From a virus (taxonomy: Duplodnaviria > Caudoviricetes): a stretch of 64,000 bases of DNA. The stretch lies in the IMG/VR virus record IMGVR_UViG_2895778652_000001, positions 28,986 through 92,985 of that record. One strand, 5' to 3'. Positions within the stretch are counted from its first letter, which is position 1. The number at the start of each line of letters is the position of its first letter. The notes under the pieces are model-generated. The model worked only from the letters and a program-made list of their open reading frames with translations, was not told the DNA's origin and made no database searches. Positions 5,414 through 64,000 of the stretch are shown here, one piece after another. A program made the position numbers and the translations under genes.

Positions 5414-5748
5414 GCTCCTGCCTCCGGGTCCAGGATCCCCAGCCCCACGCCTGCCAGCCTTGCTGCCGCCACGTCGATGCCAAGATCACGGGCTATCTCG
5501 GCACTTCTGGCAGATTGCCCCACCCGCCGCCCCTCCATGACCACCGTGCCCATCGCCAGCTCTGTGGCCCAGCGCCGCACATCCTGACCCCCCAGCTTCT
5601 CCAGCTCACTGAACGTCCGTAGCACCCGCAGGGCCGCATCGCTCAGCTCAGGTTCCGGTGCGTCAAAGCGCAGGGCGCTCAGGCGCTGATAATCCTGTCG
5701 GGCCTCCAGCCAGTCGGCGAGGGCAGTCAGGGCATAGGAGCCGCTCAC
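5410..5748 (-). CDS. Hypothetical phage protein
   Basis: Coupled overlaps. Confidence 0.55.
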   Translation of the reverse strand: MSGSYALTALADWLEARQDYQRLSALRFDAPEPELSDAALRVLRTFSELEKLGGQDVRRWATELAMGTVVMEGRRVGQSARSAEIARDLGIDVAAARLAGVGLGILDPEAGA

Positions 5749-22815: not shown

Positions 22816-23331
22816 CTACATCCCTTTGATCAGCAGCTCGGCCAGCATGCCGCCAGTTTCCGTGCAGGTCATGCCCGCCTTGGCACCGCCTTCCTGCGCC
22901 GTGGCGAGCTGCCGCATCACGTCGGGTAGCGGCATATCGCGGCCTGATTCCCTGCGCACCATCTGCTGCAAGTTGACCACCAGGTCCGCGACGCTGACGT
23001 TCGCGGGTGGACACAGCGTCTGGAGGCGGGCGTACTGGCGGGTCAACTCGGGATCGTTCTCGCTGACGCCCGCCACGATGGCGAGGTTCTGGATATCCGT
23101 GCGCGCAGGTGGGGCAGCTCGCCACGGCGCAGGCGCTGCGGTGCGCCGGTCTGCCCCACTGGGCAACACCCCCAGGATGCCCAATCCCACAACAAACACG
23201 AGTGCGCCCACCACCACGCTCCTGAAGGTGCTGGCCATCGGTGGACGTGGCGTGCTGCGGCGGGCATGGACGGCGGCATACACCAGGGCCGCGCCCACGA
23301 TCAGGAACACGGCAGCCAAAAGAGTGGACAT
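22816..23331 (-). CDS. Two-TM membrane protein (moron-like, opposite strand)
   Basis: Two hydrophobic helices then a soluble domain with two Cys. Confidence 0.6.
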   Translation of the reverse strand: MSTLLAAVFLIVGAALVYAAVHARRSTPRPPMASTFRSVVVGALVFVVGLGILGVLPSGADRRTAAPAPWRAAPPARTDIQNLAIVAGVSENDPELTRQYARLQTLCPPANVSVADLVVNLQQMVRRESGRDMPLPDVMRQLATAQEGGAKAGMTCTETGGMLAELLIKGM

Positions 23332-23415
23332 GGGCCATTACACCACAGCCCCGCGCACTCGCTTTACGTAAACGACAGGCATCACTTCCCTCACCCACTC
23401 CCGGAGGTTCCGCCG

Positions 23416-23703
23416 ATGCAAGAGCTGATGAAAGGCCAGAAGTACACCATCACCGCCAACTCCGCCTGCGGAGACCGCAGTTACACCTGCGGCGTCCATA
23501 TCGTCACGGCGTTCAACGGCACCCACGTCCAGACCACCTACCACGACGACAATTTCGCGCCGCGCACGGTGATCCTCAACCGCCGTGAACACGTCTTCAG
23601 CCCCGCCGACGACTTTGCCCTGCCCACTGGCACGTTCAACCTCAAGGGCCTGGGCGATCTGCCCCTGCTTGATCCCGACACCACCACCGACGCCCTCAAC
23701 TGA
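23416..23703 (+). CDS. Hypothetical phage protein
   Basis: GGAGG SD. Confidence 0.55.
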   Translation: MQELMKGQKYTITANSACGDRSYTCGVHIVTAFNGTHVQTTYHDDNFAPRTVILNRREHVFSPADDFALPTGTFNLKGLGDLPLLDPDTTTDALN

Positions 23704-23721
23704 CCCCAGGAGGTCCAAGCC

Positions 23722-24009
23722 ATGCGCACCCGAACTGAACGCCGAGCCACCGCCAACGCCCGCCACATCGCCCCCGCTGGAGCCATGAGCATGGCCACCG
23801 AACGCCTGATCGAGCGCACGCCCGCCAAGCACCTCGCCGTGTACGCCAACCCCGGCACCAAACGCCCGCAGAACTTCCTGAACCACAGCGGCGCATTCAG
23901 CGTGGCGGGCCGCTCCGAGCAGATCGCGGCCTACGCAGGCGGGGCCATCATCGCCCACCTGCCCAGAAGCCAAGCCCACCGCCACCTTCCGCACATGAAG
24001 CGCCGCTGA
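23722..24009 (+). CDS. Hypothetical phage protein
   Basis: AGGAGG SD. Confidence 0.5.
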   Translation: MRTRTERRATANARHIAPAGAMSMATERLIERTPAKHLAVYANPGTKRPQNFLNHSGAFSVAGRSEQIAAYAGGAIIAHLPRSQAHRHLPHMKRR

Positions 24010-24200
24010 TGGACGCCCGCCTGCGCATGGGCGAACACGCCCGAGGGGATGACCTGCTTTTCCCGGCCCGCCAGACCACCGACACCGCCGATGTGCGCCC
24101 CACCTTCACCGCCCAGCGGGCCAGCACTGCCCAGGTCAAGGCCCAGGCCAAAACCCGCCGCAAGGCCAAGAAGGAAGCCCGCAAGAAGCAGCGCCGCTAA
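24009..24200 (+). CDS. Small basic protein
   Basis: TGATG overlap; K/R-rich tail. Confidence 0.45.
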   Translation: MDARLRMGEHARGDDLLFPARQTTDTADVRPTFTAQRASTAQVKAQAKTRRKAKKEARKKQRR

Positions 24201-24250
24201 ACACCCTCTCCACCTCCCCTCACGCCGCAGCCCGGCCCACTGGAGTCCTT

Positions 24251-24613
24251 ATGTCCGAGAAAGCCCCGCCCCTCACGCACGACACCATCGGAGAGCTGGA
24301 AGCTGGCGGTATCGGCTACGCGATCAACGCCGCCATTGAGGAAATGATGGCCGACTGCTCGCGCCGCCCCGGCCTGGAAAAGGCCCGCACGGTCACCATC
24401 ACCCTGAAGTTCAAACCCCGCGCCAGCACCCTGGATCAGGGCCGCGCCGGGCTGAACAGCGTGGGCGTCCTGGCCGACGTCAAGACCAGCTCGCCGCCAC
24501 GCGCCAGCAGCGGTGAATTCCTGAACGTCGCCGAGAGCATTGGCGCAGACGGCAAGCCCGTGATTCAGGCCACCTTCGCCCAGATGCCGCTGCTGCGTGC
24601 CGGGAGCAACTGA
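24251..24613 (+). CDS. YfdP-like phage protein
   Basis: KARTVTITLKFKP motif; paired with a DUF2303-like gene. Confidence 0.65.
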   Translation: MSEKAPPLTHDTIGELEAGGIGYAINAAIEEMMADCSRRPGLEKARTVTITLKFKPRASTLDQGRAGLNSVGVLADVKTSSPPRASSGEFLNVAESIGADGKPVIQATFAQMPLLRAGSN

Positions 24614-25398
24614 TGAGCCACCTCGACAGCACCGCCATTCAAGACGTTGAACGCCTGACCAAGGAAGCCAACGGCATCCTGATCGAAGATGCCCGCCCCG
24701 GCAGCACCCACCTGATCCGCAATCAAGAAGGGGAGCCTTACCTGTTCGTGGTGGAACTGGACCACCACAACACCACCGTGTTTGACCTGCCCAGCCTGAA
24801 AATCACTGCCGAGGCCAGCCACGAGGCCGGGGTGCTGGAGGCGATTTACGTCTCGGACGGCCAGATCGTGGCGCTATGCGAGGACGACGACATCGATCAG
24901 CGCTTTACCGCCGTGCTGAACCTGCCCCTGCACCCGGCCTTCGTGCGGGTGGCCTCGTGGAAGCAGCTCACCGCACTGACCCAGAAGGAACTGACCCGCC
25001 TGCTGCGCACCGAGTTGCGGGACCACGTGGATCCCACGGTGATCGACACATTCAGCGCCCTGAAGTTCACGAACAACCGGGAGCAGACCAGCGAGGTGCG
25101 CCCGGCCAGCAACGCCCTGGACAGCAGCATCCGCCAGAGCGTGGCAGACCGCAACGGGGGCAGCGCCCCGGAGGTCATCAAGCTCAACGTGCCCGTCTAC
25201 GACATCCCTGACGCGCGCGGTGACCTGTACGAGGTCAACGTCTACGTCGAATTCGATCACGACGCGGGCAAGTTCCTGCTGCTGACCGTCCACGGTGACC
25301 TGCGTGCGGCCCAGGAAGAGGCCGTCTCGGCCCTGATCGCGGATCTGAAGGACCACGCCCAGGCCCGCTGGCCCGTGTTGTACGGCAAGCCTTCCTAA
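24613..25398 (+). CDS. YfdQ/DUF2303-like phage protein
   Basis: HPAF..W...TQKEL, PEVIKLNVPVY, C-terminal PVLYGKP. Confidence 0.65.
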   Translation: MSHLDSTAIQDVERLTKEANGILIEDARPGSTHLIRNQEGEPYLFVVELDHHNTTVFDLPSLKITAEASHEAGVLEAIYVSDGQIVALCEDDDIDQRFTAVLNLPLHPAFVRVASWKQLTALTQKELTRLLRTELRDHVDPTVIDTFSALKFTNNREQTSEVRPASNALDSSIRQSVADRNGGSAPEVIKLNVPVYDIPDARGDLYEVNVYVEFDHDAGKFLLLTVHGDLRAAQEEAVSALIADLKDHAQARWPVLYGKPS

Positions 25399-25824
25399 CA
25401 CCTTCCCCGTGGATGGCCGTCCCACGTTAATCCCGGCCACCAAAGGTCCCACCGAGGACCGGGCAGCATGACAACATGAGCTTCAAGGCGTCCCAGCAGG
25501 ATAGGGACGCTGTGCAGGCCCCACCGGCTCAGCCGGAGCGGCGCGTGAAGACGGAAACCACTGCCCCGTGGCAGCAGGTCCGGCGAGACACGGCCAAAGG
25601 TCCCTGCACCCCTGAGAACCCGCGAACTCCCAGCCTCTTCCTCGGCGCTGGCCCGCGCGGGGCGTTTCCCTTGACGCGAGACAAGGAGGCCGCCAATCCC
25701 AGCCAGGGCGGTCGTCGCGGACTCTGCCGAGTTGACGGCATAGGCAGGCCCGCCGCACGGCCCACATGCCCGATTCCACGAAGACGCAATACCCACGCCT
25801 CAGCCTTTGCGCTGGGGCGGTGTC

Positions 25825-25900
25825 GGGAGCGAAACCCCAATGGATGGGGATAGGTCCGAGTGAAGACCGAAAACAGCGGGTTCGACTCCCGCCGCTCCCG
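25825..25900 (+). tRNA. tRNA-like cloverleaf (non-canonical, 8-nt anticodon loop)
   Basis: Acceptor GGGAGCG/CGCTCCC, D-stem CCCC/GGGG, GGTC/GACC arm, T-arm GCGGG-TTCGACT-CCCGC; no encoded CCA. Confidence 0.55.
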
Positions 25901-26611
25901 AATTCCAGCGCTGCGGAATTGACCGCAGGGCACCCGCCTCTGACAGAGTGACTGCTGAGGCACCACGCCCCTTACGGGGGGCGCACGCGCGTAGCAGGTC
26001 CGGCAGGCATTCCCGATCAGGAGGGCTTGAACCACCGGACTGGACGACAGGGAATTTCACGCCCTACCCCGTGACTGTGAGGCGCGTCATCCGGCGTTCG
26101 TGGAGGGCCACCGTCCGCCATTGGCTGCCCTGTTCCAAGTAGCGTCAGGGCGCTTCTTTCCGCTGCGCTGGATGTCCCTGGGCGTCCACTGCGGCTTTTC
26201 CCCACCCTCGGCCAGAACATCCGGCCATCAACCGCCAGCGTCAATTAAGACACTGGCTTAAAGGCGCAATGCGCCGCGCGTCCCGCGCTCGCCACACACC
26301 GCGACAGGGAGGCCCACCCGGCCAGCAGGGTGACGTTCGGCTCCGTTTGAGAGAAAACGGGCGACAGTCGGCATTCTCTGCCAGAGGCCAGGGCCGCGCG
26401 CCCCATGCGCGCACAGACCCTGCATTGCGTAGCAGCAAGCCCGGACAGGACAACACAGGTGGCCCTCTGCGCTGGACCTGTCCGGGCCTTACCGGCAGTC
26501 CCTGGTTGAGCCAGGAGCCGCCGAACCTCAGCCTCACCGGGAGGTCAAGCCCGGCCCGCCGCCGCAGTCTTTTGCACGGCGAAAGGAGATCCCATGAAGT
26601 AGTCCAGCGCT

Positions 26612-26697
26612 TGCGGGTGTGCCAGCAGAACGGCTAGCTGCTGGCCAATCACGGCGGACCCAGGTCCTTGCTGGTTCGAGTCCAGCGCCCGCCGCCA
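26612..26697 (+). tRNA. Degenerate class-II tRNA-like element ending in CCA
   Basis: GCGGGT/GCCCGC acceptor pairing, GGACC/GGTCC variable-like arm, T-arm GCTGG-TTCGAGT-CCAGC, 3' GCCA. Confidence 0.45.
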
Positions 26698-26711
26698 ACA
26701 AAGGAGTGTTC

Positions 26712-27014
26712 ATGCCAACAACCCCCCAAACTGTCCGCAACGCCAGAGACGCCGCCGCCATCACCCACGCGGCGCTGCGGGCTGAACCCGTCGCGGACGA
26801 ACTCACCCACGTCCTCCACGCCATCACCGTCCAGGCCGCTGACAAGAAGACGTGCCTGACCGATTACCTCATTCCGGCCCGCGTGCGCGTCCGGCTGGTG
26901 GAGGAGCTGCACGCGCTGCGGTTCGAGGCGTGGGCCAGCCTGCCCTTCCCCGAGGCCACCAAGGCGCGGCTGAACGTCAACTGGCCGGAAAACCCGGAGG
27001 CCCTGGATGTCTGA
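26712..27014 (+). CDS. Hypothetical phage protein
   Basis: AAGGAG SD. Confidence 0.6.
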   Translation: MPTTPQTVRNARDAAAITHAALRAEPVADELTHVLHAITVQAADKKTCLTDYLIPARVRVRLVEELHALRFEAWASLPFPEATKARLNVNWPENPEALDV

Positions 27015-27432
27015 CCATCAGGAACGCGGCACGATCACGGGTCAGGATCTGGCCCGCCGTGCCTTCGCGGCCCGCAGGCTGCGCAAAGAGGAGCTGGCCG
27101 CAGATGCGCTGGTTCATCAACTTGGATTCGTGGCGTTTCCGGTAGCGTGCCTCGGCCAGACGAGCTGCGACATTCACGTGCCGCCCGCCCTGGCCATAAA
27201 GGTGGCGAGTCAAGCCAACAGTCTCGGCTGCGAGGTCATTTACTGGCACCGAGGCTTTGCCGAAACGCCCACCGGACGCCTGACCCTGAGCTGGCCGGAT
27301 GAACCGTACGACGGCGGCCCCCGGAACCGCCCACCCCCACCCGCCGGGCCGTTCTATGGCCAGTCCGAGGGCGGCAGAGCATTCTGGGACGCCCTACGGG
27401 ACACCTTTGGTTTGAGGAAGCGCCCCGTATAA
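27007..27432 (+). CDS. Hypothetical phage protein (paralog-like to the upstream ORF)
   Basis: GGAGG SD; similar ending (RLNVNWPE vs RLTLSWPD). Confidence 0.55.
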   Translation: MSDHQERGTITGQDLARRAFAARRLRKEELAADALVHQLGFVAFPVACLGQTSCDIHVPPALAIKVASQANSLGCEVIYWHRGFAETPTGRLTLSWPDEPYDGGPRNRPPPPAGPFYGQSEGGRAFWDALRDTFGLRKRPV

Positions 27433-27489
27433 CTTTCTGCCGGAATTGCACCGTTCGGTATAACCGTGCAAAAGCCGTTTTCCTCGGTT

Positions 27490-28458
27490 TCACCAGTCCA
27501 GATTCACAGCCCGGTCCTGCTGCCTCGCATGATTGACGTACAGCGAACTCGTCTCCACCGAGGCGTGGCGCAGGTGGTCACGCACCTCCAGCAGATCGCG
27601 TGTCTGGCGATAGACCTCGGTGCCTGCTGTGTGGCGCAGGCCGTGAACCTCGCGCCCCACATACCGCACGCCAGTCACCTTGCACAGCTCGCGCAGGCTG
27701 TCGCTGATGCCTTTTCGGGTCTCCCAATTCAGGACGCGCGGCCCGAGCTTCGGCGTCATCTCTACCCAGCGCGAGAGTGCCACGCCGCACCTCCGCGACA
27801 CCGGCACCTCCTGACGCTTCTGCCGCTTGCCGGTCACGGTCAGGTAAGGCCGCTCCGCCGTCAGGTGTAGGTCTGCCCGCATCAAACCCGCCATCTCCCC
27901 CACCCTCAGCCCACAGTGCGCACCCAGCAACACCATGACCTTCTGTTGTGGATCCGCCTGTCTCAGTAGCAACTCAATGTCCGCCTTGCTGTAGGGCTGG
28001 CGCTTCTGCCACGCCGGAACCGGATCGGGGGCGGCCCGCACGTCCGTCAGCGGGGCCGCGTCGCTCGCTCCTGACCACCGGAGCGCTGCGAAGAGCGCCC
28101 GCGCTGCCGCCAGTCGCACCCGCACGCTGCCTGGGGCCAGCCCGGAGGCTTCCAGATGGCGGGCGTACCCGTACCCGTCATTCGGACGGGGCCGCAGCAG
28201 GCTCATTCCGCCAGGGCCAGCCCAGTTCAGGAAGGCGGACAGTCCGGCGCGGTAGCTCATCAGGGTGTTCTGGCTGACCCGCGCGCCTGCACTTCCCCTG
28301 GTGACCAGAAATGCCTCGGTCAGATCCCACAGGCCCGCCTCGTCCCGCTCGGCAGCCCAGCGCAGGGCCTCTCGCCTCAGCGCGTCGGGTTCCAGCCGGG
28401 CAAGCCGTTCCGAGCGGGCGGCAAGGTCCAGTCGGGCGGCCATCAGATCAAGAGACAT
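27490..28458 (-). CDS. Tyrosine recombinase (XerC/D-like resolvase)
   Basis: GLRVGE, GKRQK, HGLRH, LRH-ASVETSSLY catalytic residues; leaderless TAAGCT-N5-ATG. Confidence 0.93.
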   Translation of the reverse strand: MSLDLMAARLDLAARSERLARLEPDALRREALRWAAERDEAGLWDLTEAFLVTRGSAGARVSQNTLMSYRAGLSAFLNWAGPGGMSLLRPRPNDGYGYARHLEASGLAPGSVRVRLAAARALFAALRWSGASDAAPLTDVRAAPDPVPAWQKRQPYSKADIELLLRQADPQQKVMVLLGAHCGLRVGEMAGLMRADLHLTAERPYLTVTGKRQKRQEVPVSRRCGVALSRWVEMTPKLGPRVLNWETRKGISDSLRELCKVTGVRYVGREVHGLRHTAGTEVYRQTRDLLEVRDHLRHASVETSSLYVNHARQQDRAVNLDW

Positions 28459-28504
28459 GACCCAGCTTAAGCCGTGGCGGATGCTGGGTCAGAAGAGTCA
28501 CAAG

Positions 28505-28532
28505 GCAGCCGATTACATCAGTTATGTAACCC
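28505..28532. other. dif/lox-like 11-6-11 recombination site
   Basis: GCAGCCGATTA-CATCAG-TTATGTAACCC, right arm resembles the XerD arm; directly upstream of the recombinase. Confidence 0.6.
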
Positions 28533-28557
28533 CAACTAACTCAACGAGGTTTTACCC

Positions 28558-29058
28558 ATGACTGAACCCACTCCACCCGACAACCGCCTCTGGTGCTGGA
28601 GCCGTCACCCCAGCGGCCCCTTCCATGGACCAGACCCCGATCAAGGCACTTCAGCACTGGACTCGCTCAGCGATCCCACCACCCCAGCCATCCCAGAGAG
28701 CGATCAGCCATGGGTATACATCGGGCGCTGTGCTCCAGGACTCGCCAGCAGCTTCCTGCCGGATCTGGACGGACTGATCGGCGACGCCCGCATCACGGCC
28801 TACGACATGCACCGGGACAGGCCGCTCAGCGCCCGCCGCCCGTCGGACTGGCTGGGCAACCTCAGTCCCGCCGAACACCAGGACCTGCTGGACCGCGTGG
28901 GCCGGGCCTTCGACGATTGGGCCTCGCAGCACCACCGGCAGCCGGAGTTCTTCCAGGTGCAGGACGTGCAGGCGCTGACCTGGGCTGAAGCAGACGCGGT
29001 GGCCCGGGACTATGCGAAAGAGCTGCTCGCGGTCATGGCCAGCGGGGCAAGCCAGTAA
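28558..29058 (+). CDS. Hypothetical phage protein
   Basis: GAGG SD; 166 aa. Confidence 0.6.
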   Translation: MTEPTPPDNRLWCWSRHPSGPFHGPDPDQGTSALDSLSDPTTPAIPESDQPWVYIGRCAPGLASSFLPDLDGLIGDARITAYDMHRDRPLSARRPSDWLGNLSPAEHQDLLDRVGRAFDDWASQHHRQPEFFQVQDVQALTWAEADAVARDYAKELLAVMASGASQ

Positions 29059-35947: not shown

Positions 35948-36588
35948 CCGTCCAGGCCCCGCCCCCCACTGGAGTCCGCCTCATCGATCACGCGGACCGT
36001 CTCAAAGCCCACCTGCGTGCCCGCCATGCCAGCAACGCCCCCGCCGAGGAGATCAAGCTGCTGCTCGGCCTCTGGGAGACCCTGATGGACCTGCTCAGCA
36101 ACAGCCTGCACGAGGAGGTGCCCGGAAAGTTCCGCATGTCCTACCCCCGCAAGCGCGCCGAGCCTGCGCCGCAGCGGCCCGTGTCGTTCAGAAGCACGCT
36201 GCATGACGTCCTGCTGGTCTGCCTGGACCAACCACTCGGGGTCCGGCAGATCGCCTTCCGGTATGAGCAGCACTGGGACCGGCACATCGCAGACGATCAA
36301 CTGCGGACATCGCTGCACCGCCTTTGTAAACACGGCTTTCTGGAACGGGCTGCGGTGGGCGAGTACTGCCTCACTGGCCTCGGCAGGCACCGACTCGACG
36401 AACTCGAAGTGCCGCCTGTCCCCTCGGCGGCTGGCCCGGCGGCTGACCTGCTGCGCGCCCTGCTGGACAAGACCTATCAGCCGCAGTTGGGTGAGCATCA
36501 CGCCACCTTCTCCGCTGAAGCCCTGGAGCGTGCCCTGGACATCCTGGAAGGGACGCTCCCGCCCATTCCCGACTGGAGAAGCCCATGA
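35944..36588 (+). CDS. Winged-helix-containing protein
   Basis: LRTSLHRLCKHGFLER...YCLTGLG. Confidence 0.55.
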   Translation: MTVQAPPPTGVRLIDHADRLKAHLRARHASNAPAEEIKLLLGLWETLMDLLSNSLHEEVPGKFRMSYPRKRAEPAPQRPVSFRSTLHDVLLVCLDQPLGVRQIAFRYEQHWDRHIADDQLRTSLHRLCKHGFLERAAVGEYCLTGLGRHRLDELEVPPVPSAAGPAADLLRALLDKTYQPQLGEHHATFSAEALERALDILEGTLPPIPDWRSP

Positions 36589-37160
36589 AGAAGACCCCCA
36601 GCCTGTTTCAGCGCAACTATCACGGCCAGCGTGAACTCACCAATGACGTCGTTCCCGGCAGCGAATGGGTGCTGGCCGGGGAAGGCGTGGCCACCCGGAA
36701 ATACGACGGGACGTGCTGCATGGTCCAGGCAGGCAAACTGTTTAAGCGCTACGACGCCAAACACGGCAGAACCCCGCCCGCCGACTTCATTCCCGCCCAG
36801 CCTGCGGCAGACGAGACCACCGGTCACTGGCCCGGCTGGGTGCCCGTGCTGGACACCGATCCGGCCAGCCGATGGCACCGCGAGGCGTGGCGCACCTGCC
36901 CCGGCCTATTGGACGGCACCTACGAGCTGATCGGGCCGAAGGTGCAGGGTGGCAAAGAGACTGATCTTCACGGCGACCAGCATGTCCTGATCCAGCACGG
37001 CGCTCATCCCCTGCCGGACGCGCCACGCGACTTTGAGGGCCTGCGGGCCTACCTTGCCGCGCATCCCGACTGGGAGGGCCTGGTCTGGCATCACCCGGAT
37101 GGGCGCAGGGTCAAGGTGACGCGTAAGGGGTTTGTGGATGCGGGCGGTCCAGTGCCATGA
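36585..37160 (+). CDS. RNA ligase-like nucleotidyltransferase (DUF5565-type)
   Basis: ATRKYDGTCC (KxDG), GHWPGWVP, GTYELIGPKVQG, EGLVWH. Confidence 0.75.
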   Translation: MKKTPSLFQRNYHGQRELTNDVVPGSEWVLAGEGVATRKYDGTCCMVQAGKLFKRYDAKHGRTPPADFIPAQPAADETTGHWPGWVPVLDTDPASRWHREAWRTCPGLLDGTYELIGPKVQGGKETDLHGDQHVLIQHGAHPLPDAPRDFEGLRAYLAAHPDWEGLVWHHPDGRRVKVTRKGFVDAGGPVP

Positions 37161-40535: not shown

Positions 40536-40990
40536 GTGGGTTGCGGCGCATCCACCTGCACCTGCCCCGGCAAAGGCTGATGAGCGTCAACGAGATGCTC
40601 CGGACGTCTGAACACAGGCGGGCGCAGGCCCGGGATCTGCTCTGCGCCCGCGTGGCCCTGGAACTGAAGCGGACTGGTCAGATGCCAGAACTGCCCCTGC
40701 GGTGTGTGGAGATCGATGTGGTGATCGCCACGCCTGCGCCGCTTGATGTGGACTCGAAATACGTGGCCCCCAAGCATCTGCTGGATTCCCTGGTGCGCCC
40801 AAAGTCCAATCTCGCCCTCTTCCGCCAGCACCGCCGTCAGAAGCGCGGCCTGTTCATCCCACTGGGCGTCATCTGGGACGACTCCGACGGTGAAGCGGGC
40901 ATGGACGGCTGCGTGCGCCGTTTCACCGTCATTCAGCAGCTCAGCATGCTGCACGCCGTCACGATCACCATCCAGGAGGTTTTGCCTTGA
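40532..40990 (+). CDS. RusA-like Holliday junction resolvase
   Basis: SVN, DVDS..PKHLLDSL, GVIWDDS acidic motifs. Confidence 0.7.
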   Translation: MSGLRRIHLHLPRQRLMSVNEMLRTSEHRRAQARDLLCARVALELKRTGQMPELPLRCVEIDVVIATPAPLDVDSKYVAPKHLLDSLVRPKSNLALFRQHRRQKRGLFIPLGVIWDDSDGEAGMDGCVRRFTVIQQLSMLHAVTITIQEVLP

Positions 40991-41637
40991 ATACGCTTCC
41001 CATCGTCATTGGCGACATTCATGGACGCCTGGATCTGCTGCGCCTGGCCCTGGACCGCTTCCCGCACCGCCCGGTGGTCTTCATCGGGGATCTGGTGGAC
41101 CGTGGCTTTGAGAGTCGAGGCGTCGTGGGGCTGGTCCGCGCACTTGCCGCAGCCGGGCGCGCTCAACTCTGCCTGGGCAACCACGAGGAGATGCTGATCA
41201 CTGCCGTCCTGAAAGGCCGGGCGCGTGATCACTGGCTGGACAATGGCGGTCAGGCCACCCTTGACAGTTACGGCGGCGACTCTGCGGACCTAGAAGATGA
41301 CGCTCAGTGGCTGCTGGAACACGCCCGGCCCTGGATTCAGCGCGGGCATGTCCTGTTCGCCCATGCCATGCGCCCTGACCCCAGTGACCAGGACGAGGAC
41401 ATTCACCTGTGGGGCCGTCCCGGAGAGGCCCCGCTCCACCGCCTGCGCCCTGGCGTCTCCCATTCCGTGCATGGGCATACCCCGATGGAACGGCCCGTCA
41501 GCCTTCAGGCCCCGGACGGCACCGTGGCATGGTTCATCGATACTGGAGCCTTCCATACAGGCGTGCTGTGTGCGCTGGACACGGCGGACTGGACCCCGCA
41601 CCTGATTCGCCTTGAGGAGCAAGATGGCTCAACTTAA
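40987..41637 (+). CDS. Calcineurin-like metallophosphoesterase (lambda NinI-type)
   Basis: GDIHG, GDLVDRG, GNHE, HGHTP, IDTG. Confidence 0.92.
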   Translation: MNTLPIVIGDIHGRLDLLRLALDRFPHRPVVFIGDLVDRGFESRGVVGLVRALAAAGRAQLCLGNHEEMLITAVLKGRARDHWLDNGGQATLDSYGGDSADLEDDAQWLLEHARPWIQRGHVLFAHAMRPDPSDQDEDIHLWGRPGEAPLHRLRPGVSHSVHGHTPMERPVSLQAPDGTVAWFIDTGAFHTGVLCALDTADWTPHLIRLEEQDGST

Positions 41638-58867: not shown

Positions 58868-59792
58868 TCTGCAACCCCTGTTCGATTACGACGATCTGAC
58901 GCCCCAGGTGCGCGAGATGGTGCAGGAACACACTGGGGAGATTCGCACCCTGGCCCGCCGCGCCGCACAGGACATTGTGGAGATCGGCCAGCGGCTGATC
59001 CAAGTCAGGGATGCCCTGGGCTACGGCGAATTCGATAGCTGGCTAAAAGCTGAATTCGACTGGAGTCGCCGCGCCGCATATAACTTCATCAAGGTTGCCG
59101 AGGTTTTCGGAAGTGCAAATTTTGCACAACTGGATATTGCCCCCTCTGCCCTCTACGCCCTTGCCAGTGGCACGATGCCCGCGCCGCTGCGTGAGGAGAT
59201 CGTTGAACGCGCCCAGGCCGGGGAGCCGATCACCCGGAAACTGGTGGTGGAACGCCTGGAGCAGCACCATCAGCAGTTCGTCCCGGATGCCGCGCCGCCG
59301 CCCGTAGAGCCACCCAGTCCGCCACCCGTCGCTGAGGTTGCCGCACCTCCAGCGCCGCCCGTGCTAGCAAGGGCCGTGACTCCTCCCTTGACTAAGCGCC
59401 CCTTTACGCCCTTGCCCCGCGAGATTGAGGATCTGGAACTGGAGGACGGCACAGTGATTCAGGTGCCCTCGCTGCCCTTGCTTCCCCGGGAGCAGGAACT
59501 CAAGCAGCGTGACTACGCCAAAGCTGCGGCCCGTTTCGACAGCGCCGCCTCGAAAGTCCTGGCTGCCCTGACGGCCCTGGATGTGTACAGCATGGATGAA
59601 GTGGCGCAGATTGCCCAGAGTCCAGAGGGGAGACAGCTCTACGGCCCGGTGCGCGTGACCCGGATCAAAGAAATGTTGGAGCAGCTTCATCAGAAGTGGG
59701 TGGGCGCTCCTGACCAGACCCGCACCATTGATGCCGCGCCGTTGCTGGACGTGAAAGCAAAAAAGGATGAACGGGTGCTGGAGCTGAACTGA
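58854..59792 (+). CDS. DUF3102-domain protein
   Basis: IVEIGQRLIQVRDALGYGEFDSWLKAEFDWSRRAAYNFIKV. Confidence 0.8.
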   Translation: MPETDLQPLFDYDDLTPQVREMVQEHTGEIRTLARRAAQDIVEIGQRLIQVRDALGYGEFDSWLKAEFDWSRRAAYNFIKVAEVFGSANFAQLDIAPSALYALASGTMPAPLREEIVERAQAGEPITRKLVVERLEQHHQQFVPDAAPPPVEPPSPPPVAEVAAPPAPPVLARAVTPPLTKRPFTPLPREIEDLELEDGTVIQVPSLPLLPREQELKQRDYAKAAARFDSAASKVLAALTALDVYSMDEVAQIAQSPEGRQLYGPVRVTRIKEMLEQLHQKWVGAPDQTRTIDAAPLLDVKAKKDERVLELN

Positions 59793-59848
59793 CGCGCCCA
59801 CATCCGCACCCGCGCCCTGGCACTCGCTGGGGCGTTTATCTTGGGGGC

Positions 59849-60253
59849 ATGACCCTGGACCCTGAGACAAACGCCCGCATTGAAGCCGAGGAAGCCTACC
59901 GGGCGCAGGTGCGACGCACGGGCCAGCGTAAGGGCTTCTGGGAATGGGCGGCGGTACTGATCGGGGTTCCAATCGCCGTCCTGGCCGCGCTGGCGATCTG
60001 GGGTTCTCTTGCTCCCTCCACGCCTGACTACCAAACCAGTTTTCTGGTGGCCTGCCAGCGCGGCGTGCGCGAAAAGCTCAAGGCCCCATCTACCGCAAAG
60101 TTTGGGAATGAGATAGGCCGTGACGTGCTGACGGTGACGAGTGGTTACCGTCTGAATGGGACAATAGAGGCGCAAAACAGTTTCGGTGCGTTGATTCAAT
60201 CCACCTATCAATGCACGGGCAGCAGCACAAATCTAGAAATAGACATTGAATAG
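59849..60253 (+). CDS. Single-TM protein with LKAPSTAKF / AQNSFGA domain
   Basis: Leaderless TATCTT-N6-ATG; one TM helix. Confidence 0.7.
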   Translation: MTLDPETNARIEAEEAYRAQVRRTGQRKGFWEWAAVLIGVPIAVLAALAIWGSLAPSTPDYQTSFLVACQRGVREKLKAPSTAKFGNEIGRDVLTVTSGYRLNGTIEAQNSFGALIQSTYQCTGSSTNLEIDIE

Positions 60254-60283
60254 ATCGCCTCTCAGGTTCATAACCATTCACGC

Positions 60284-60303
60284 CGCCCTTCCGGGCGGTT
60301 TTT
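60284..60303 (+). terminator. Intrinsic terminator before the TMP gene
   Basis: CCGCCC-TTCC-GGGCGG-TTTTT. Confidence 0.65.
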
Positions 60304-60327
60304 CGTTGCCCTGGAGGTGACTAAACC

Positions 60328-63300
60328 ATGACCAAAGGTCAATCTGTGGGCGGCCTCTTTATCGATACGGGCCTAGATTTGACAGGCATCGAGCGTGATC
60401 TTCAGAAGGCCCGTCAGTTTGTTGAGCGTACCAACGGTGTGAAGCTGAACATCGACAACCGCGCGGCAAAGACTGCGATTGAGCAGGTTAAGGCTGATCT
60501 GGCTGCCCTCAAGGGAATGTCAGAGCGGGACGCTCAGGCCCGCGCGCAAGCTGCCCGACTGCTGGGGACGGCTTACAAAGAGCAGGCTGGGGCCATCCGG
60601 GGCGTGACGGCAGAACTCAAAACCCTGTCAGCCCAGTCGGTCCTGACCGCGCGGCTAGGCGCACAGGCAGACCGCGAGGCGGCGGCGGCAGTCCGGGCAC
60701 TCGTGACGGCCCGCAAGGAAGCGGCAACACTGGCGGGACGGGCAGGCAACGCCGCAGACCTCGCACGGGCACAGACGGCTTTACAGGGCATCATGCAAAC
60801 GCTGGGCAAACTCCAGAACACTGGAACGGTGCGCCTGAAGTTTGATTTGACCAGCGTCAATGCTGAGCTGGCCCGCCTCCAGGGCCGCTCGGTGTTGCTG
60901 AAAGTCAGCTTCTCGAATTTCGACGCGATCAAGAATGACCTGACCACCCTCAAGGGCATGTTGAACGGCCTCGGCGCGAACATGCAATACCGCGTGACCG
61001 TGAACACCACGGCGCTGAATGCGGTGTACACGCAAATCAACACCCAGATCACGGCCCTTCAGAGCCTGATCAGCCAGCTCCGCGCTCTCGGTGGTGGTGG
61101 GGGCGGCGGTGGCGGCGGCGGACGCGGTGGGCCGGGCATCTCAGCAGCTAATCGGGCACTCCTGGCCGAGCTGGAAGCCCTGAACAACCAGTGGAAGCGC
61201 GGGGACGTAAACGCCGCGCAGTTCGGTTCCCAGCTCACTGCCCTGCAAGGCCGTCTCCGCACGGCGTCTGCCGGGGCCACAGCCGGGACAGCCGACTTCA
61301 AGGCGCTGGACGCTGGATTGACCCGCCTGACGGGCAGCCTGCGCTCCATTAACACCGACGCCTTCCAGCGGATCAGGACCGAGGCTGGAGCCATGCGGGC
61401 GGCGTTCGACACGGCCACGGCGGGCGTGCGGCGCAATTCCACCGAGTTCCGGGCCGCATCTGCCGTCTATGCCGCCGAAAGTGCGCGGATCACCGCCAGT
61501 TTGCAGACGATGGCCCGCAGTGGCAACCTGACCACCACGCAGCTTGGTCAGGTCAACCGCGAGATTCAGCGCCTCGCCCGTGAGCAGAACACCATCCGGG
61601 GCGGCATCAATGCGGGTGGCCTGTCCGGCAACATCGTCAACAGCTTCGGGATGCTGCCCGGTCAACTGGGCATGATGGCTTCCCAGGGCGGCGCGGCCAT
61701 CAATGCCTTCCAGGGCATCGCCTCTGCTGCTGGCCCTGCTGGGCTGGCTGTGGGTGGGCTTGCCCTGGTGGTGGGCGGCGCGGCGCTGGCGGCAACCAAA
61801 GCGGTCAACGAGTACGCCAAATTTGAGAAGGGGCTGGCGCAGATCGCTACGCTGACTGACAAGACCACCGCCCAGCTCGGGGACACTGGACGCGCGATCC
61901 TGAAGATGAGCGGCGACGTGGGGGCCACCTACACGGATCTCAACGCGGGTCTGTATGACGTGCTGGGTGCAGGGGTCAAGGGCACTGAGGACATGACGGC
62001 CAGCCTGGCGCTGCTCAAGCAGTCCGCTGAACTGGCGCGCGCTGGAGCCACGGAGACTGCCACTGCCACCGACGTGCTGACCAGCGTGTTGAACGCCTAC
62101 AAACTGGAAGCGTCTGACGCCACAATGGTCAGCGATAAACTCTTTAAGGCCGTCGACGACGGCAAGATGAGCTTCTCGCAACTCGCCCAGAGTCTCGGTA
62201 TGGTGCTGCCCACCGCCAAAATGGCCGGCCTGAGTCTGGACGAGGTGCTGGGCAGCGTGGCCGCACTGACCGCGCAGGGCATCAAGCCGTCCTCCGCCAT
62301 CGAATACCTGCGCTCGGCGCTGACGAACATCATCAAGCCCAGCATGCAGGCAAAAGAGACCGCCAAAGATCTCGGTATCCAGTTCAATGCCCAGGCGCTG
62401 GCAGCCAAGGGCCTCGTGCCATTCCTGCGCGACGTGATCGAGAAGACCGACGGCAACAGCGAGGCGATGGCCCGGCTGTTCGGCGACGTGGGCGGTCTGA
62501 CCGCCGTGACGGGTCTGGCTAACGGCAATTTCGAGCGCCTGACCGCCACCCTGGAAGGGCAGGCGAACGCGGCAGGTAAAACGGCGGAAGCCTACGGCAA
62601 GGTGGCCGCCACCATCAGCCAGAAATCTGATGAGGTTTCGGCCAAATGGAAGTCGCTGTGGGTGAATGTGGGCGAGCTGTTTGCGTCTACCAAAACCAGC
62701 GTGCTGGACGGTATCAACGACATGCTCACGGGCCTGAACGACGTGTTGAGCAAGTTCAATCAGGCGCGTGACCTGAAAAACGGCGTCGGCAAGTCGGATC
62801 TGCTCAAGCAGAAGGAGGCCAAGGAAGAGGAACTGGCCACGGCCAGAAGCCAATTGGCGTCTGCGCAGAGCGTGGCGGATGCGCAGCAACGCGCGACGGG
62901 CAAAGTGTCAGAGCAGTTCCAGCCCCGTCTGGACGCCCAGAAAGCCAAGGTGGCTGCGCTGGAAGCCGCAGTGGCAGACCTGAGCTTTCAGGTGCAGCAG
63001 GAGGCCCAGGCCAACGGCACCTTCACTGGCCCGCTTCAGACCGGTGGCCCAGCGGGTGTGGCCCTGACGGCGGCGGGAGCCGACGCCCTGGGCGCAAAGG
63101 TGGTCGAGGCCGGGGCGGGCAAGCTGGGACAGGTCAGCGCCGACAGCATCGTGAATTACTGCGCCCAGTGGGTGCGGCTCGTGCTTGGCAAGGCCACACC
63201 AGAAGTGGCAGGCAAGATCAATGCCCTGTTCCAGACCGACAGCAATGGGGACGGCAAAACCGAGGCCACCGATGCCGCCCGTAACCTGCTCAAGGCGGGT

Positions 63301-64000
63301 TTTGCTCAGCGGTATAGCGGCACGAAAGATCTTCAGAAGGGCGATGTGGTGTTCTACACGGAGAATGGCCAGAATCACACTGGTATCTACATCGGCGACG
63401 GCATGGTGCGTGGCAACAACCGCGTGACCTATGCGGCCAACGGTGGCAAATTCGACAAGTATGGCAACCCCACCAGCCCCGGCGTGAACCCCGTGGGCGA
63501 TGTGGCGATTGGTAAACTGGGCACGCCCAACTGGATCGTGCGTCCCGGTGACATGCTGCCCGTGCTGGGGGCCAAGGTGCCCGAGGTCCGGCCCGATGCA
63601 GGAGCAGGCGGAGCCGCGTCTGCTGCGCCGATCAAGGCGTTTGAGACCTACGTTAAGGAGGCCAGACGCATTCTGGATCAGGTGGAGAAGTACGCACCTG
63701 GCGGCACCGCGCCCAATTCGGCCAAATGGAACAAGGCCAAAGATGCCCTCAAATCCTTTGGCGATCAGAGCGACATCACGGCCCGAGCGCTGGAATATGC
63801 TGGACTGGCCACCAAAAAGGCAGATAAAGCCACCTCCCAGTACGGCCAGACCTTTGACCGTTTGAAGGGCCAGCTCGACATCACGCAGAGCCTGGGCGAT
63901 CTGGGCCGCCCCTCTGCCGAGATCAGCAAGAATCTCAAAGCCATCAGCACCGATGCCCTGGCTGCCGCCAGTGCCGAGAAGAAACGCAACGGCGAGACGG
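60328..64000 (+). CDS. Tail tape measure protein (truncated by window end) with embedded NlpC/P60-CHAP-like domain
   Basis: GGAGG SD, ATG 60328, frame open to the end of the window; TP901-type core (LTSVLNAYKL...VSDKLF...GKMSFSQLA); NYCAQWV...GDVVFY...HTGIYIGDG near 63150-63420. Confidence 0.9.
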   Translation, partial: MTKGQSVGGLFIDTGLDLTGIERDLQKARQFVERTNGVKLNIDNRAAKTAIEQVKADLAALKGMSERDAQARAQAARLLGTAYKEQAGAIRGVTAELKTLSAQSVLTARLGAQADREAAAAVRALVTARKEAATLAGRAGNAADLARAQTALQGIMQTLGKLQNTGTVRLKFDLTSVNAELARLQGRSVLLKVSFSNFDAIKNDLTTLKGMLNGLGANMQYRVTVNTTALNAVYTQINTQITALQSLISQLRALGGGGGGGGGGGRGGPGISAANRALLAELEALNNQWKRGDVNAAQFGSQLTALQGRLRTASAGATAGTADFKALDAGLTRLTGSLRSINTDAFQRIRTEAGAMRAAFDTATAGVRRNSTEFRAASAVYAAESARITASLQTMARSGNLTTTQLGQVNREIQRLAREQNTIRGGINAGGLSGNIVNSFGMLPGQLGMMASQGGAAINAFQGIASAAGPAGLAVGGLALVVGGAALAATKAVNEYAKFEKGLAQIATLTDKTTAQLGDTGRAILKMSGDVGATYTDLNAGLYDVLGAGVKGTEDMTASLALLKQSAELARAGATETATATDVLTSVLNAYKLEASDATMVSDKLFKAVDDGKMSFSQLAQSLGMVLPTAKMAGLSLDEVLGSVAALTAQGIKPSSAIEYLRSALTNIIKPSMQAKETAKDLGIQFNAQALAAKGLVPFLRDVIEKTDGNSEAMARLFGDVGGLTAVTGLANGNFERLTATLEGQANAAGKTAEAYGKVAATISQKSDEVSAKWKSLWVNVGELFASTKTSVLDGINDMLTGLNDVLSKFNQARDLKNGVGKSDLLKQKEAKEEELATARSQLASAQSVADAQQRATGKVSEQFQPRLDAQKAKVAALEAAVADLSFQVQQEAQANGTFTGPLQTGGPAGVALTAAGADALGAKVVEAGAGKLGQVSADSIVNYCAQWVRLVLGKATPEVAGKINALFQTDSNGDGKTEATDAARNLLKAGFAQRYSGTKDLQKGDVVFYTENGQNHTGIYIGDGMVRGNNRVTYAANGGKFDKYGNPTSPGVNPVGDVAIGKLGTPNWIVRPGDMLPVLGAKVPEVRPDAGAGGAASAAPIKAFETYVKEARRILDQVEKYAPGGTAPNSAKWNKAKDALKSFGDQSDITARALEYAGLATKKADKATSQYGQTFDRLKGQLDITQSLGDLGRPSAEISKNLKAISTDALAAASAEKKRNGET

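Follow-up and report, generated by a model that had tools for sequence, protein, structure and literature searches.

tRNA-like elements in a non-coding stretch beside the recombinase gene of a Deinococcaceae phage

Here we describe a 1.3-kb non-coding stretch of phage DNA that carries two transfer RNA (tRNA)-like elements, e1 and e2, and lies close to a convergent tyrosine recombinase gene. It belongs to a window of 64,000 bases, the whole stretch of DNA that was analyzed, which makes up the final 64 kb of contig C161 (92,985 bases) in a Deinococcaceae genome; positions are those of the window unless another contig is named. Judged by their sequences, e1 and e2 are tRNA mimics unable to decode. 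The reading that we favor, and put forward tentatively, is that the stretch would be a transcribed spacer punctuated by tRNA mimics, which would serve as recognition sites for the enzymes of tRNA maturation; transcription, cleavage, and a role of the released RNAs are what we infer for it. The features on which the argument rests are these:

25399-26711, + strand: the non-coding stretch, from the stop of the phrog_210 gene (24613-25398) to the start of an open reading frame (ORF) of 100 amino acids (26712-27014)
25823-25902, + strand: e1, a cloverleaf (Rfam tRNA model, 24.1 bits at 25826-25899; gathering threshold 29)
26612-26697, + strand: e2, a tRNA mimic lacking an anticodon arm (tRNA-Sec model, 20.9 bits at 26613-26692; gathering threshold 47)
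26700-26714, + strand: Shine-Dalgarno (SD) sequence and ATG of the downstream gene, the ribosome-binding site (RBS) AAAGGAG starting 3 nt past the CCA of e2
27490-28458, − strand: tyrosine recombinase gene (Phage_integrase and SAM-like N-terminal domains), convergent with the stretch and 0.8 kb to its right

Two tRNA mimics on the + strand

The first-pass annotation of this DNA had noted two tRNA-like elements, and both exist, on the + strand, as sub-threshold matches to models of the tRNA clan. The first, e1, has an acceptor stem of 6 bp that can be extended to 9 bp and, after a spacer of three bases, a D arm of 4 bp with GG in its loop (AAUGGAU). At the anticodon position there is a 4-bp stem with an 8-nt loop, CGAGUGAA, the T arm is canonical (GCGGG UUCGACU CCCGC), and there is no CCA. 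The cloverleaf is also the minimum-energy fold of e1 and accounts for 69% of the ensemble (z = −3.5). In e2, the acceptor stem (TGCGGGT/GCCCGCC) encloses a middle part, made up of an 8-bp hairpin with a D-loop-like loop, AACGGCUAG, and then a short hairpin, and a canonical T arm (GCTGG TTCGAGT CCAGC); G-CCA stands after the 3′ strand of the acceptor stem. This 3′ CCA and the position of e2 are as expected for a processing signal and support such a putative role.

Set against the features of a tRNA gene, the T arm and the GG of the D loop are present in these elements, and a score at the detection threshold, a 7-nt anticodon loop with U33, and a 7-bp acceptor stem are not. The annotation had drawn a parallel with the phage RNAs GOLLD and ROOL, which occur near tRNA genes; ARAGORN finds no tRNA gene in the 64-kb window, and Rfam at gathering thresholds finds no match there. 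Compared with 51 host tRNAs and the transfer-messenger RNA (tmRNA), e1 and e2 share nothing beyond the T-loop region, the best matches being of 21-22 nt at 86-90% identity in the T arm only. The sole exact 20-nt copy of e2 elsewhere in the genome lies on contig C50 inside a coding frame read as hisG, and is thus attributed to chance. Nearly all host tRNA genes encode CCA.

Among genome contigs, the pattern of the 3′ half of e2 was found in one Deinococcaceae metagenome-assembled genome only (G097:C2; L004/L030). At 5500-5553 of this locus lies a chromosomal intergenic element whose T arm and acceptor-like strand match those of e2 almost base for base and are followed by ACCA and a clear terminator. 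Neither Rfam nor ARAGORN recognizes this element, and its fold is not significant; a scar left by a tRNA fragment and a further tRNA mimic are both conceivable.

tRNA mimics recur beside homologues of the recombinase

Homologues of the tyrosine recombinase (E ≤ 1e-60) are encoded in 37 of the 125 genomes of the family. With this gene as the marker, the DNA past the 3′ end of 39 homologues was collected (178,749 bases, four pieces being shorter than 700 bases) and scanned with a strict rule that asks for GTTCRANYC, a T stem of 5/5 pairs, and at least 6 of 7 acceptor pairs. The scan returned 18 elements in 10 loci on the strand that converges with the recombinase and none on the other, a placement that points to a transcript. 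ARAGORN calls three of the 18 as tRNAs. Tracts of at least 900 nt without coding signal are present in 16 of the 35 loci that extend for at least 3 kb.

We distinguish three classes of mimic. Class A is the cloverleaf and comprises e1 and its counterparts in G070, L053, L055, and L084. The copies in L053 and L055 score 46 bits as tRNA with the anticodon CGA, and have C at the place of U33 and no tRNA-Ser long arm. Class B has a D-like hairpin of 3 bp between its acceptor stem and T arm, and in its near-identical copies one acceptor pair varies between A-U, G-U, and G-C. Class C, the design of e2, joins its acceptor stem to the T arm through a short middle part and is found at nine other places. 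When the tails were read directly, N-CCA followed the acceptor stem in six of the ten class C elements and in none of class A or B. In seven of the eight other class C elements, an SD sequence follows the acceptor stem at 1-11 nt and a start codon at 10-20 nt, and the genes that stand behind class C elements are different in every phage.

Two side observations are added here. A conserved sequence, CCCGACCCTGGTAAGTC, lies a few bases past the class B mimics in L056, L066, and L069 (three species) and has a diverged form in L068. L037 (G068:C4) and L038 (G012:C7) hold tight arrays of four to five short tRNA genes, including 'tRNA-Leu' genes of 73-74 nt, which are too short for a long arm; adjoining tRNA-like matches are not called by ARAGORN.

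Given that the elements adjoin homologues of one recombinase family, they might act as DNA rather than RNA, either as attP or cassette-boundary sites of the tyrosine recombinase or as hot spots for homologous exchange between phages. Homology to relatives does break close to the 3′ termini of the elements or right at them (for e1 at 25902; for e2 at 26691, the end of the short record 17 of public run X3), a different gene follows class C in every phage, and the contig, being circular or terminally redundant, would hold an intact attP. We nevertheless give this reading little credence. No host tRNA carries the 3′ halves of e1 or e2, neither an identity of at least 15 bp nor a second junction copy was found as would mark an attachment site, and the 3′ half of class C has no second copy in any of the four host genomes tested. 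Furthermore, the acceptor strands covary and both the D-loop-like GG and the T-loop motifs are kept, neither of which is needed by an att core, and 18 of 18 elements lie on one strand. The recombinase is also Xer/Cre-sized and has candidate inverted repeats at its own 5′ end.

The helices of the mimics are maintained among the loci. In class A, 92.5% of cells are paired across five loci, compared with 44-60% when the partners are slid, and eight pairs are changed on both sides, which 2 of 500 shuffles attain. The five compact members of class C have 96.7% of cells paired, compared with 23-63% after sliding, and three compensatory pairs, compared with none in every slide.

The mimics could instead be decaying baggage without function, derived from tRNA genes that the phage once had or from host tRNAs that it acquired through imprecise excision, and accompanied by dead ORFs. 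This would fit the 46 bits (CGA) of the L053 and L055 counterparts against the 24 of e1, as well as the dispensability of modules in relatives, which is discussed below. We consider it unlikely, given that helices are 92-97% paired with compensatory changes and that the same non-canonical designs recur across species, with a missing anticodon arm, a CCA end, a position before an SD sequence, and an upstream GC hairpin. The high-scoring relatives themselves have C in place of U33, which is near-universal in tRNAs, and are without the long arm that tRNA-Ser has. Additionally, in record 11 of public run X2, a relative in which one of nine differences is unlisted, both listed differences of e1 are in the D loop and e1 is unchanged at the listed positions outside it, whereas the 14-nt leader (25800-25813) has seven listed changes, six substitutions and a deletion.

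The stretch shows no sign of coding

The first-pass annotation was right to describe this interval as gene-free. The GC content by codon position is flat over about 25400-26700, whereas that of third positions (GC3) is 0.85-0.95 in the flanking genes, and none of the 14 ORFs of at least 53 amino acids in the stretch has a match in Pfam or PHROGs (E ≤ 0.1 or 0.01). In a close relative found in a public run, single-base indels are scattered over 25593-25753. Taken together, the flat GC3, the absence of family matches, and these indels indicate that the stretch is non-coding: the codon bias, family match, and frame-preserving indels expected of a protein-coding gene or pseudogene are all missing. 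Because phage genomes are densely coding, a conserved untranslated tract of 1-2 kb needs explaining.

Conserved islands form a mosaic of separable modules

Apart from the mimics, the stretch contains the following features:

25408-25439, + strand: M1, a hairpin (CGTGG/CCACG) directly after the stop codon of the upstream gene
25461-25475, + strand: motif GGGCAGC-ATGACAAC near the 5′ end of the stretch, with GC-ATGACAAC at 25466-25475
25710-25758, + strand: block A, a conserved island including GGCATAGGCAGGCCCGCCGCAC, 77.6% identical at the collinear place in G070:C2
25911-25928, + strand: hairpin CTGCGG/CCGCAG just 3′ of e1, present too behind the e1 homologue of G070
26283-26421, + strand: block C, three hairpins, namely one with loop CACACACC, CCGTTT/AAACGG with loop GAGAGA, and a GCGCGC hairpin
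26439-26487, + strand: perfect hairpin of 11 bp (z = −2.25)
26523-26559, + strand: block E, hairpin CCGGG (26537-26541)/CCCGG (26550-26554) with loop AGGUCAAG
26582-26602, + strand: strong SD sequence AAAGGAG and mini-ORF ATG AAG TAG (26594-26602), identical in L056

Several of these islands are found again in G070:C2, a prophage of another Deinococcus species, where a tract of about 2.1 kb without coding signal lies between two genes. The order is that of the window: the ATGACAAC motif, block A, a homologue of e1, block C (71% identity), and a second tRNA-like element, which is then followed by a terminator-like hairpin. The same genome carries a second, partial copy on contig C56, and both elements share gene order with the window phage, with a recombinase that is 59-60% identical and again convergent and downstream. 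The spacing of the islands differs by hundreds of bases between the window and G070. A covariance model of e1 (R1) recovers the G070:C2 homologue at 39.8 bits (E 1.7e-6); in this homologue, four pairs of the acceptor stem and one of the 'anticodon' stem show compensatory changes, and the loop, UGAGUCAU, is of 8 nt. Block C is about 70% identical to its counterparts in G070:C2 and G070:C56, and 9 of its 37 pairs are changed on both sides in the RNAalifold consensus. Covarying helices, which had been proposed as a check on homologues, are thus seen both in the mimics and in block C. A covariance model of block C (R2) and a pattern scan locate this block in only two of the 125 genomes (G000 and G070). 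A weak R2 match in G040 was rejected as a false positive, as it falls in a coding region read as a hydroxy-acid dehydrogenase. Global MAFFT alignments of whole stretches are unreliable outside the islands.

The M1 loop, TGGCCG, is complementary to a downstream CGGCCA, and M1 is therefore possibly an H-type pseudoknot. It is kept in G082 (two copies) and G046, where the stem instead reads CGACG/CGTCG and CGATG/CGTCG and the loop, the 3′ tail, and the complementary hexamer stay unchanged, a comparison of three distinct sequences only; M1 also occurs in public runs X1-X4. The ATGACAAC motif, with a similar GC-rich prefix, is found on the same strand in 6 of the 39 loci beside the recombinase and in none on the opposite one, as well as in G070 and in runs X3 and X4; it has no SD sequence before it and no conserved reading frame after it. 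Stretches resembling block A occur in L057 and X4. Block E is collinear and conserved in eight loci, about 100-200 nt upstream of class C. Its upstream CCUC can pair with GAGG of the loop, and the pairs beside the CCGG core vary among loci between G-C, A-U, and G-U. At the place equivalent to the mini-ORF, L055 and L056 have ATG TAA, and the C56 and C2 elements of G070 have mini-ORFs of three to four codons; the SD sequence and mini-ORF of the window may have a role of their own.

A part of block C (26320-26342) directly repeats, as GCCAGCAG...CGGCT, the 5′ arm and loop of the long hairpin in e2 (26621-26646), and may compete for the 3′ arm of that hairpin as an alternative pairing. In G070, another 7-mer, CAGCGTG, is common to the places that correspond to block C and to the e2 hairpin.

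The stems listed by the annotation are all in place: GCGTCCC/GGGACGC at 25488-25510, GTCCGG/CCGGAC at 25998-26040, the 11-bp GCCCGGACAGG/CCTGTCCGGGC at 26439-26487, and GCCAGCAG/CTGCTGGC at 26621-26645. Its direct repeats, CCAAAGGTCCC (25440, 25594) and AGCAGGTCCGGC (25573, 25993), were correctly located and are at chance level, there being 14 two-copy families of 10-12 nt per 1.5 kb. When 120-nt windows were slid over 23200-29000, z on the + strand fell below −2 in 5 of about 13 windows in 25780-26500 compared with 2 of the 84 others. The low-z windows start at 25780, 26140, 26200, 26320, and 26380 and have z from −2.3 to −5.0, with the minimum at 25780. Three long segments of the stretch fold no better than their shuffles (z = −0.5, −1.9, and −1.8).

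Two records of public run X2 reveal how the stretch is put together. In record 9, 24600-25775 is kept at about 90% identity, and the next 609 nt (25776-26384) are swapped for 147 other bases. Further on, 26385-26485, around the 11-bp hairpin, is retained with eight differences and four gaps, 105 bases are replaced by 112, and 26591-27014 is kept. Record 11, which has high depth, joins 25411-25476 through 150 other bases to 25770-25902, with an RBS next, and its homology stops exactly at the end of the extended stem of e1. Since pieces are gained and lost independently in these records, we regard the stretch as a mosaic of separable modules.

These data bear on the proposal of the annotation that the stretch is a large structured RNA, in the manner of GOLLD and ROOL, which would take up most of the 1.3 kb as one global fold with the tRNA-like parts as domains or end-processing signals. 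What holds of it is that the stretch is non-coding and belongs to a conserved family with covarying helices; the islands keep the same order across 1.3-2.1 kb in the window and G070, windows with z below −2 concentrate in 25780-26500, and long non-coding tracts are common beside the recombinase (16 of 35 loci). However, whole-stretch folding is ordinary, with segment z of −0.5 to −1.9, no supported long-range helix was found, and the spacing of islands varies by hundreds of bases. Nor does the kinship with GOLLD and ROOL hold, as there is no match to either or to any other Rfam family, and the seven Rfam matches at E ≤ 10 in 25200-26900 include no GOLLD, ROOL, or other large-RNA family. An array of separable modules fits better than one globally folded RNA because relatives swap 25776-26384 for 147 nt or keep e1 alone elsewhere. 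Thus, a single global fold strikes us as quite improbable.

A blastn search of the stretch against phage and plasmid collections gave no match, and a search of its flanking proteins in viral contigs gave no relatives. Viral contigs scanned for the patterns of e1, M1, and block C, and metagenome contigs scanned for those of e1 and M1, likewise gave no matches. Homologues of the upstream phrog_210 gene are encoded in eight other genomes, and at six of the nine loci a gene follows directly. In G082:C8 (189 kb), a segment with the phrog_210 gene, M1, and the recombinase occurs twice with identical sequence, at about 88-94 kb and 182-189 kb. G076:C1 (94 kb) has few genes in common with the contig of the window and gives no synteny information.

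A putative transcript punctuated by tRNA mimics

In the reading that we tentatively favor, that of a punctuated spacer, the stretch would belong to a rightward operon, stay untranslated, and be assembled from separable RNA modules. Host enzymes would recognize the mimics, RNase P on the 5′ side and RNase Z or exonucleases together with the CCA-adding enzyme on the 3′ side, and the long transcript would be cut at the mimics with release of small stable tRNA-like RNAs. The cuts would also free a middle RNA of about 0.7 kb (25903-26611) bearing blocks C and E, and the mRNA of the downstream accessory gene with a very short leader. The released RNAs could be regulators, or decoys for tRNA-directed enzymes.

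A number of observations weigh against this reading. No sigma-70-like promoter or intrinsic terminator is predicted within 25000-27200, and with neither consensus inside it, co-transcription of the stretch is an assumption. No RNA run is among the public runs that match the stretch. The 9-bp acceptor stem and the missing CCA make e1 a non-ideal substrate for RNase P and RNase Z. Relatives exist without e1 and the next 0.5 kb, so these modules are dispensable. Close homologues of the blocks of the window occur in only 2 of the 125 genomes, and most of the covariation consequently rests on 3-5 sequences, and part of it may come from descent from different tRNAs and not from compensatory evolution. 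The acceptor-stem control is permissive in GC-rich DNA, with a mean of 6.4 compared with 5.7 of 7 pairs and full stems in 15 compared with 5 of 30.

A broader proposal, which we regard as possible but doubtful, is that Deinococcus phage-plasmids carry undescribed non-coding loci of 0.9-2 kb. In these, non-decoding mimics, some of them CCA-ended, would punctuate a transcript before variable accessory genes and would hijack host tRNA maturation to define RNA ends. Both the RNAs of tRNA shape and the middle RNA with its many hairpins might then also serve for regulation, or as decoys that counter host defenses directed at tRNAs.

Setting of the stretch in the phage genome

The first 4,621 bases of contig C161 recur as its last 4,621 (59380-64000) with 99.98% identity. 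Because of this terminal repeat we regard C161 as an element of about 88.4 kb that is circular or terminally redundant, and not as a prophage with visible host junctions. In other species, many of the contigs with recombinase homologues are of 89-111 kb, which suggests that they are phage-plasmids. C161 encodes a ParB-N protein, two DNA methylases, antirepressors of the Rha and Bro/ORF6C types, a DnaD/O-like replication protein, and an exonuclease. Large ORFs beyond 44 kb of the window have no Pfam match and are taken as structural genes. The stretch is single-copy within its own genome, which is rated 100% complete.

Upstream of the recombinase gene, the 100-nt gap at 28459-28557 contains the inverted repeats ACCCAGC(N16)GCTGGGT and TTACAT(N5)ATGTAA, which are candidate recombinase or operator sites. 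The phage also encodes an RNA ligase (36585-37160, + strand; phrog_14301, E 1e-68; Pfam RLIG1, E 5e-10) and a NinI-like metallophosphatase (40987-41637, + strand), and the ligase of G070:C2 is 59% identical to that of the window phage. It is possible that RNA repair by the ligase is tied to the tRNA mimics.

Novelty and implications

Rfam 15 contains no family for any part of the stretch, and text searches on Deinococcus prophages, phage-plasmids, and tRNA-like elements found no description, with papers on phage-plasmids judged by title or abstract. tRNA-like processing elements are already known, and anticodon-less, CCA-ended mimics placed before phage genes in tracts of 1-2 kb appear to be a new variant of them. 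If the mimics are processing signals, they would provide a counterpart in bacterial viruses to tRNA punctuation, and a new anticodon-less, CCA-ended family that would supply natural variants for work on the specificity of RNase P and RNase Z. Should the released RNAs act as decoys or regulators, they would bear on the conflict between phage and host over tRNAs. The family is, in addition, a practical marker for Deinococcus phage contigs with this recombinase, many of which are about 90-110 kb.

Comparison with known systems

The bar minigenes of phage lambda are two-codon ORFs in the att/int region. Similarly, the window has a strong SD sequence and a two-codon ORF, conserved in L056, in a non-coding region near a recombinase gene. 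The codons differ from those of bar, however, and the similarity may be incidental.

GOLLD and ROOL are long phage non-coding RNAs associated with tRNA-type sequences, and the stretch resembles them as a long non-coding region of a phage genome with sequences of that type. It departs from them in having no Rfam match, a modular pattern of presence and absence, no sign of a global fold, and a host from a different phylum.

The tRNA-like domain of tmRNA and the tRNA-like module of the bacterial Y RNA YrlA combine an acceptor stem and a T arm with an analogue of the D loop, and an anticodon arm that decodes is missing. The same combination is found in e2 and class B, and e2 additionally has the CCA end; the extended acceptor stem of e1 resembles the stem that continues from the tRNA-like module of YrlA. 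The alanine determinant of tmRNA is G3-U70. Unlike tmRNA, e2 has C3-G70 and no tag reading frame, and the host has a normal tmRNA on contig C169. The idea of a two-piece or phage tmRNA was dropped because ARAGORN makes no call, a tag frame is missing, and the host encodes its tmRNA elsewhere. Unlike YrlA, the stretch has no match to the YrlA model, and the idea of a Y RNA was abandoned as well, since an Rsr gene (TROVE, PF05731) is absent from its own genome, the D. radiodurans control being positive.

The closest parallels are with RNAs in which a tRNA-shaped element is a processing signal. RNase P is known to act on the precursors of c4, a phage-derived antisense RNA, as well as on mRNAs and on non-coding RNAs from intergenic regions (PMC11143913). 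Unlike c4, the stretch has no C4 match, and its only c4-a1b1 match has 16.3 bits (cut-off 46.7), lies on the minus strand, and is at chance level; no complementarity to the e2 loops near the downstream RBS was seen by eye, no systematic search having been made. MALAT1-mascRNA and the tRNA punctuation of mitochondria are tRNA-like processing signals in long transcripts. As in c4 of P1 and P7, MALAT1-mascRNA, and mitochondrial punctuation, the mimics would be tRNA-shaped elements within a longer transcript, immediately before the next functional unit. P1 is, likewise, a phage-plasmid of about 90 kb with antirepressor genes. Furthermore, as in those systems, e1 and e2 have the minihelix of acceptor stem and T arm, and e2 also the 3′ CCA, features that are recognized by RNase P.

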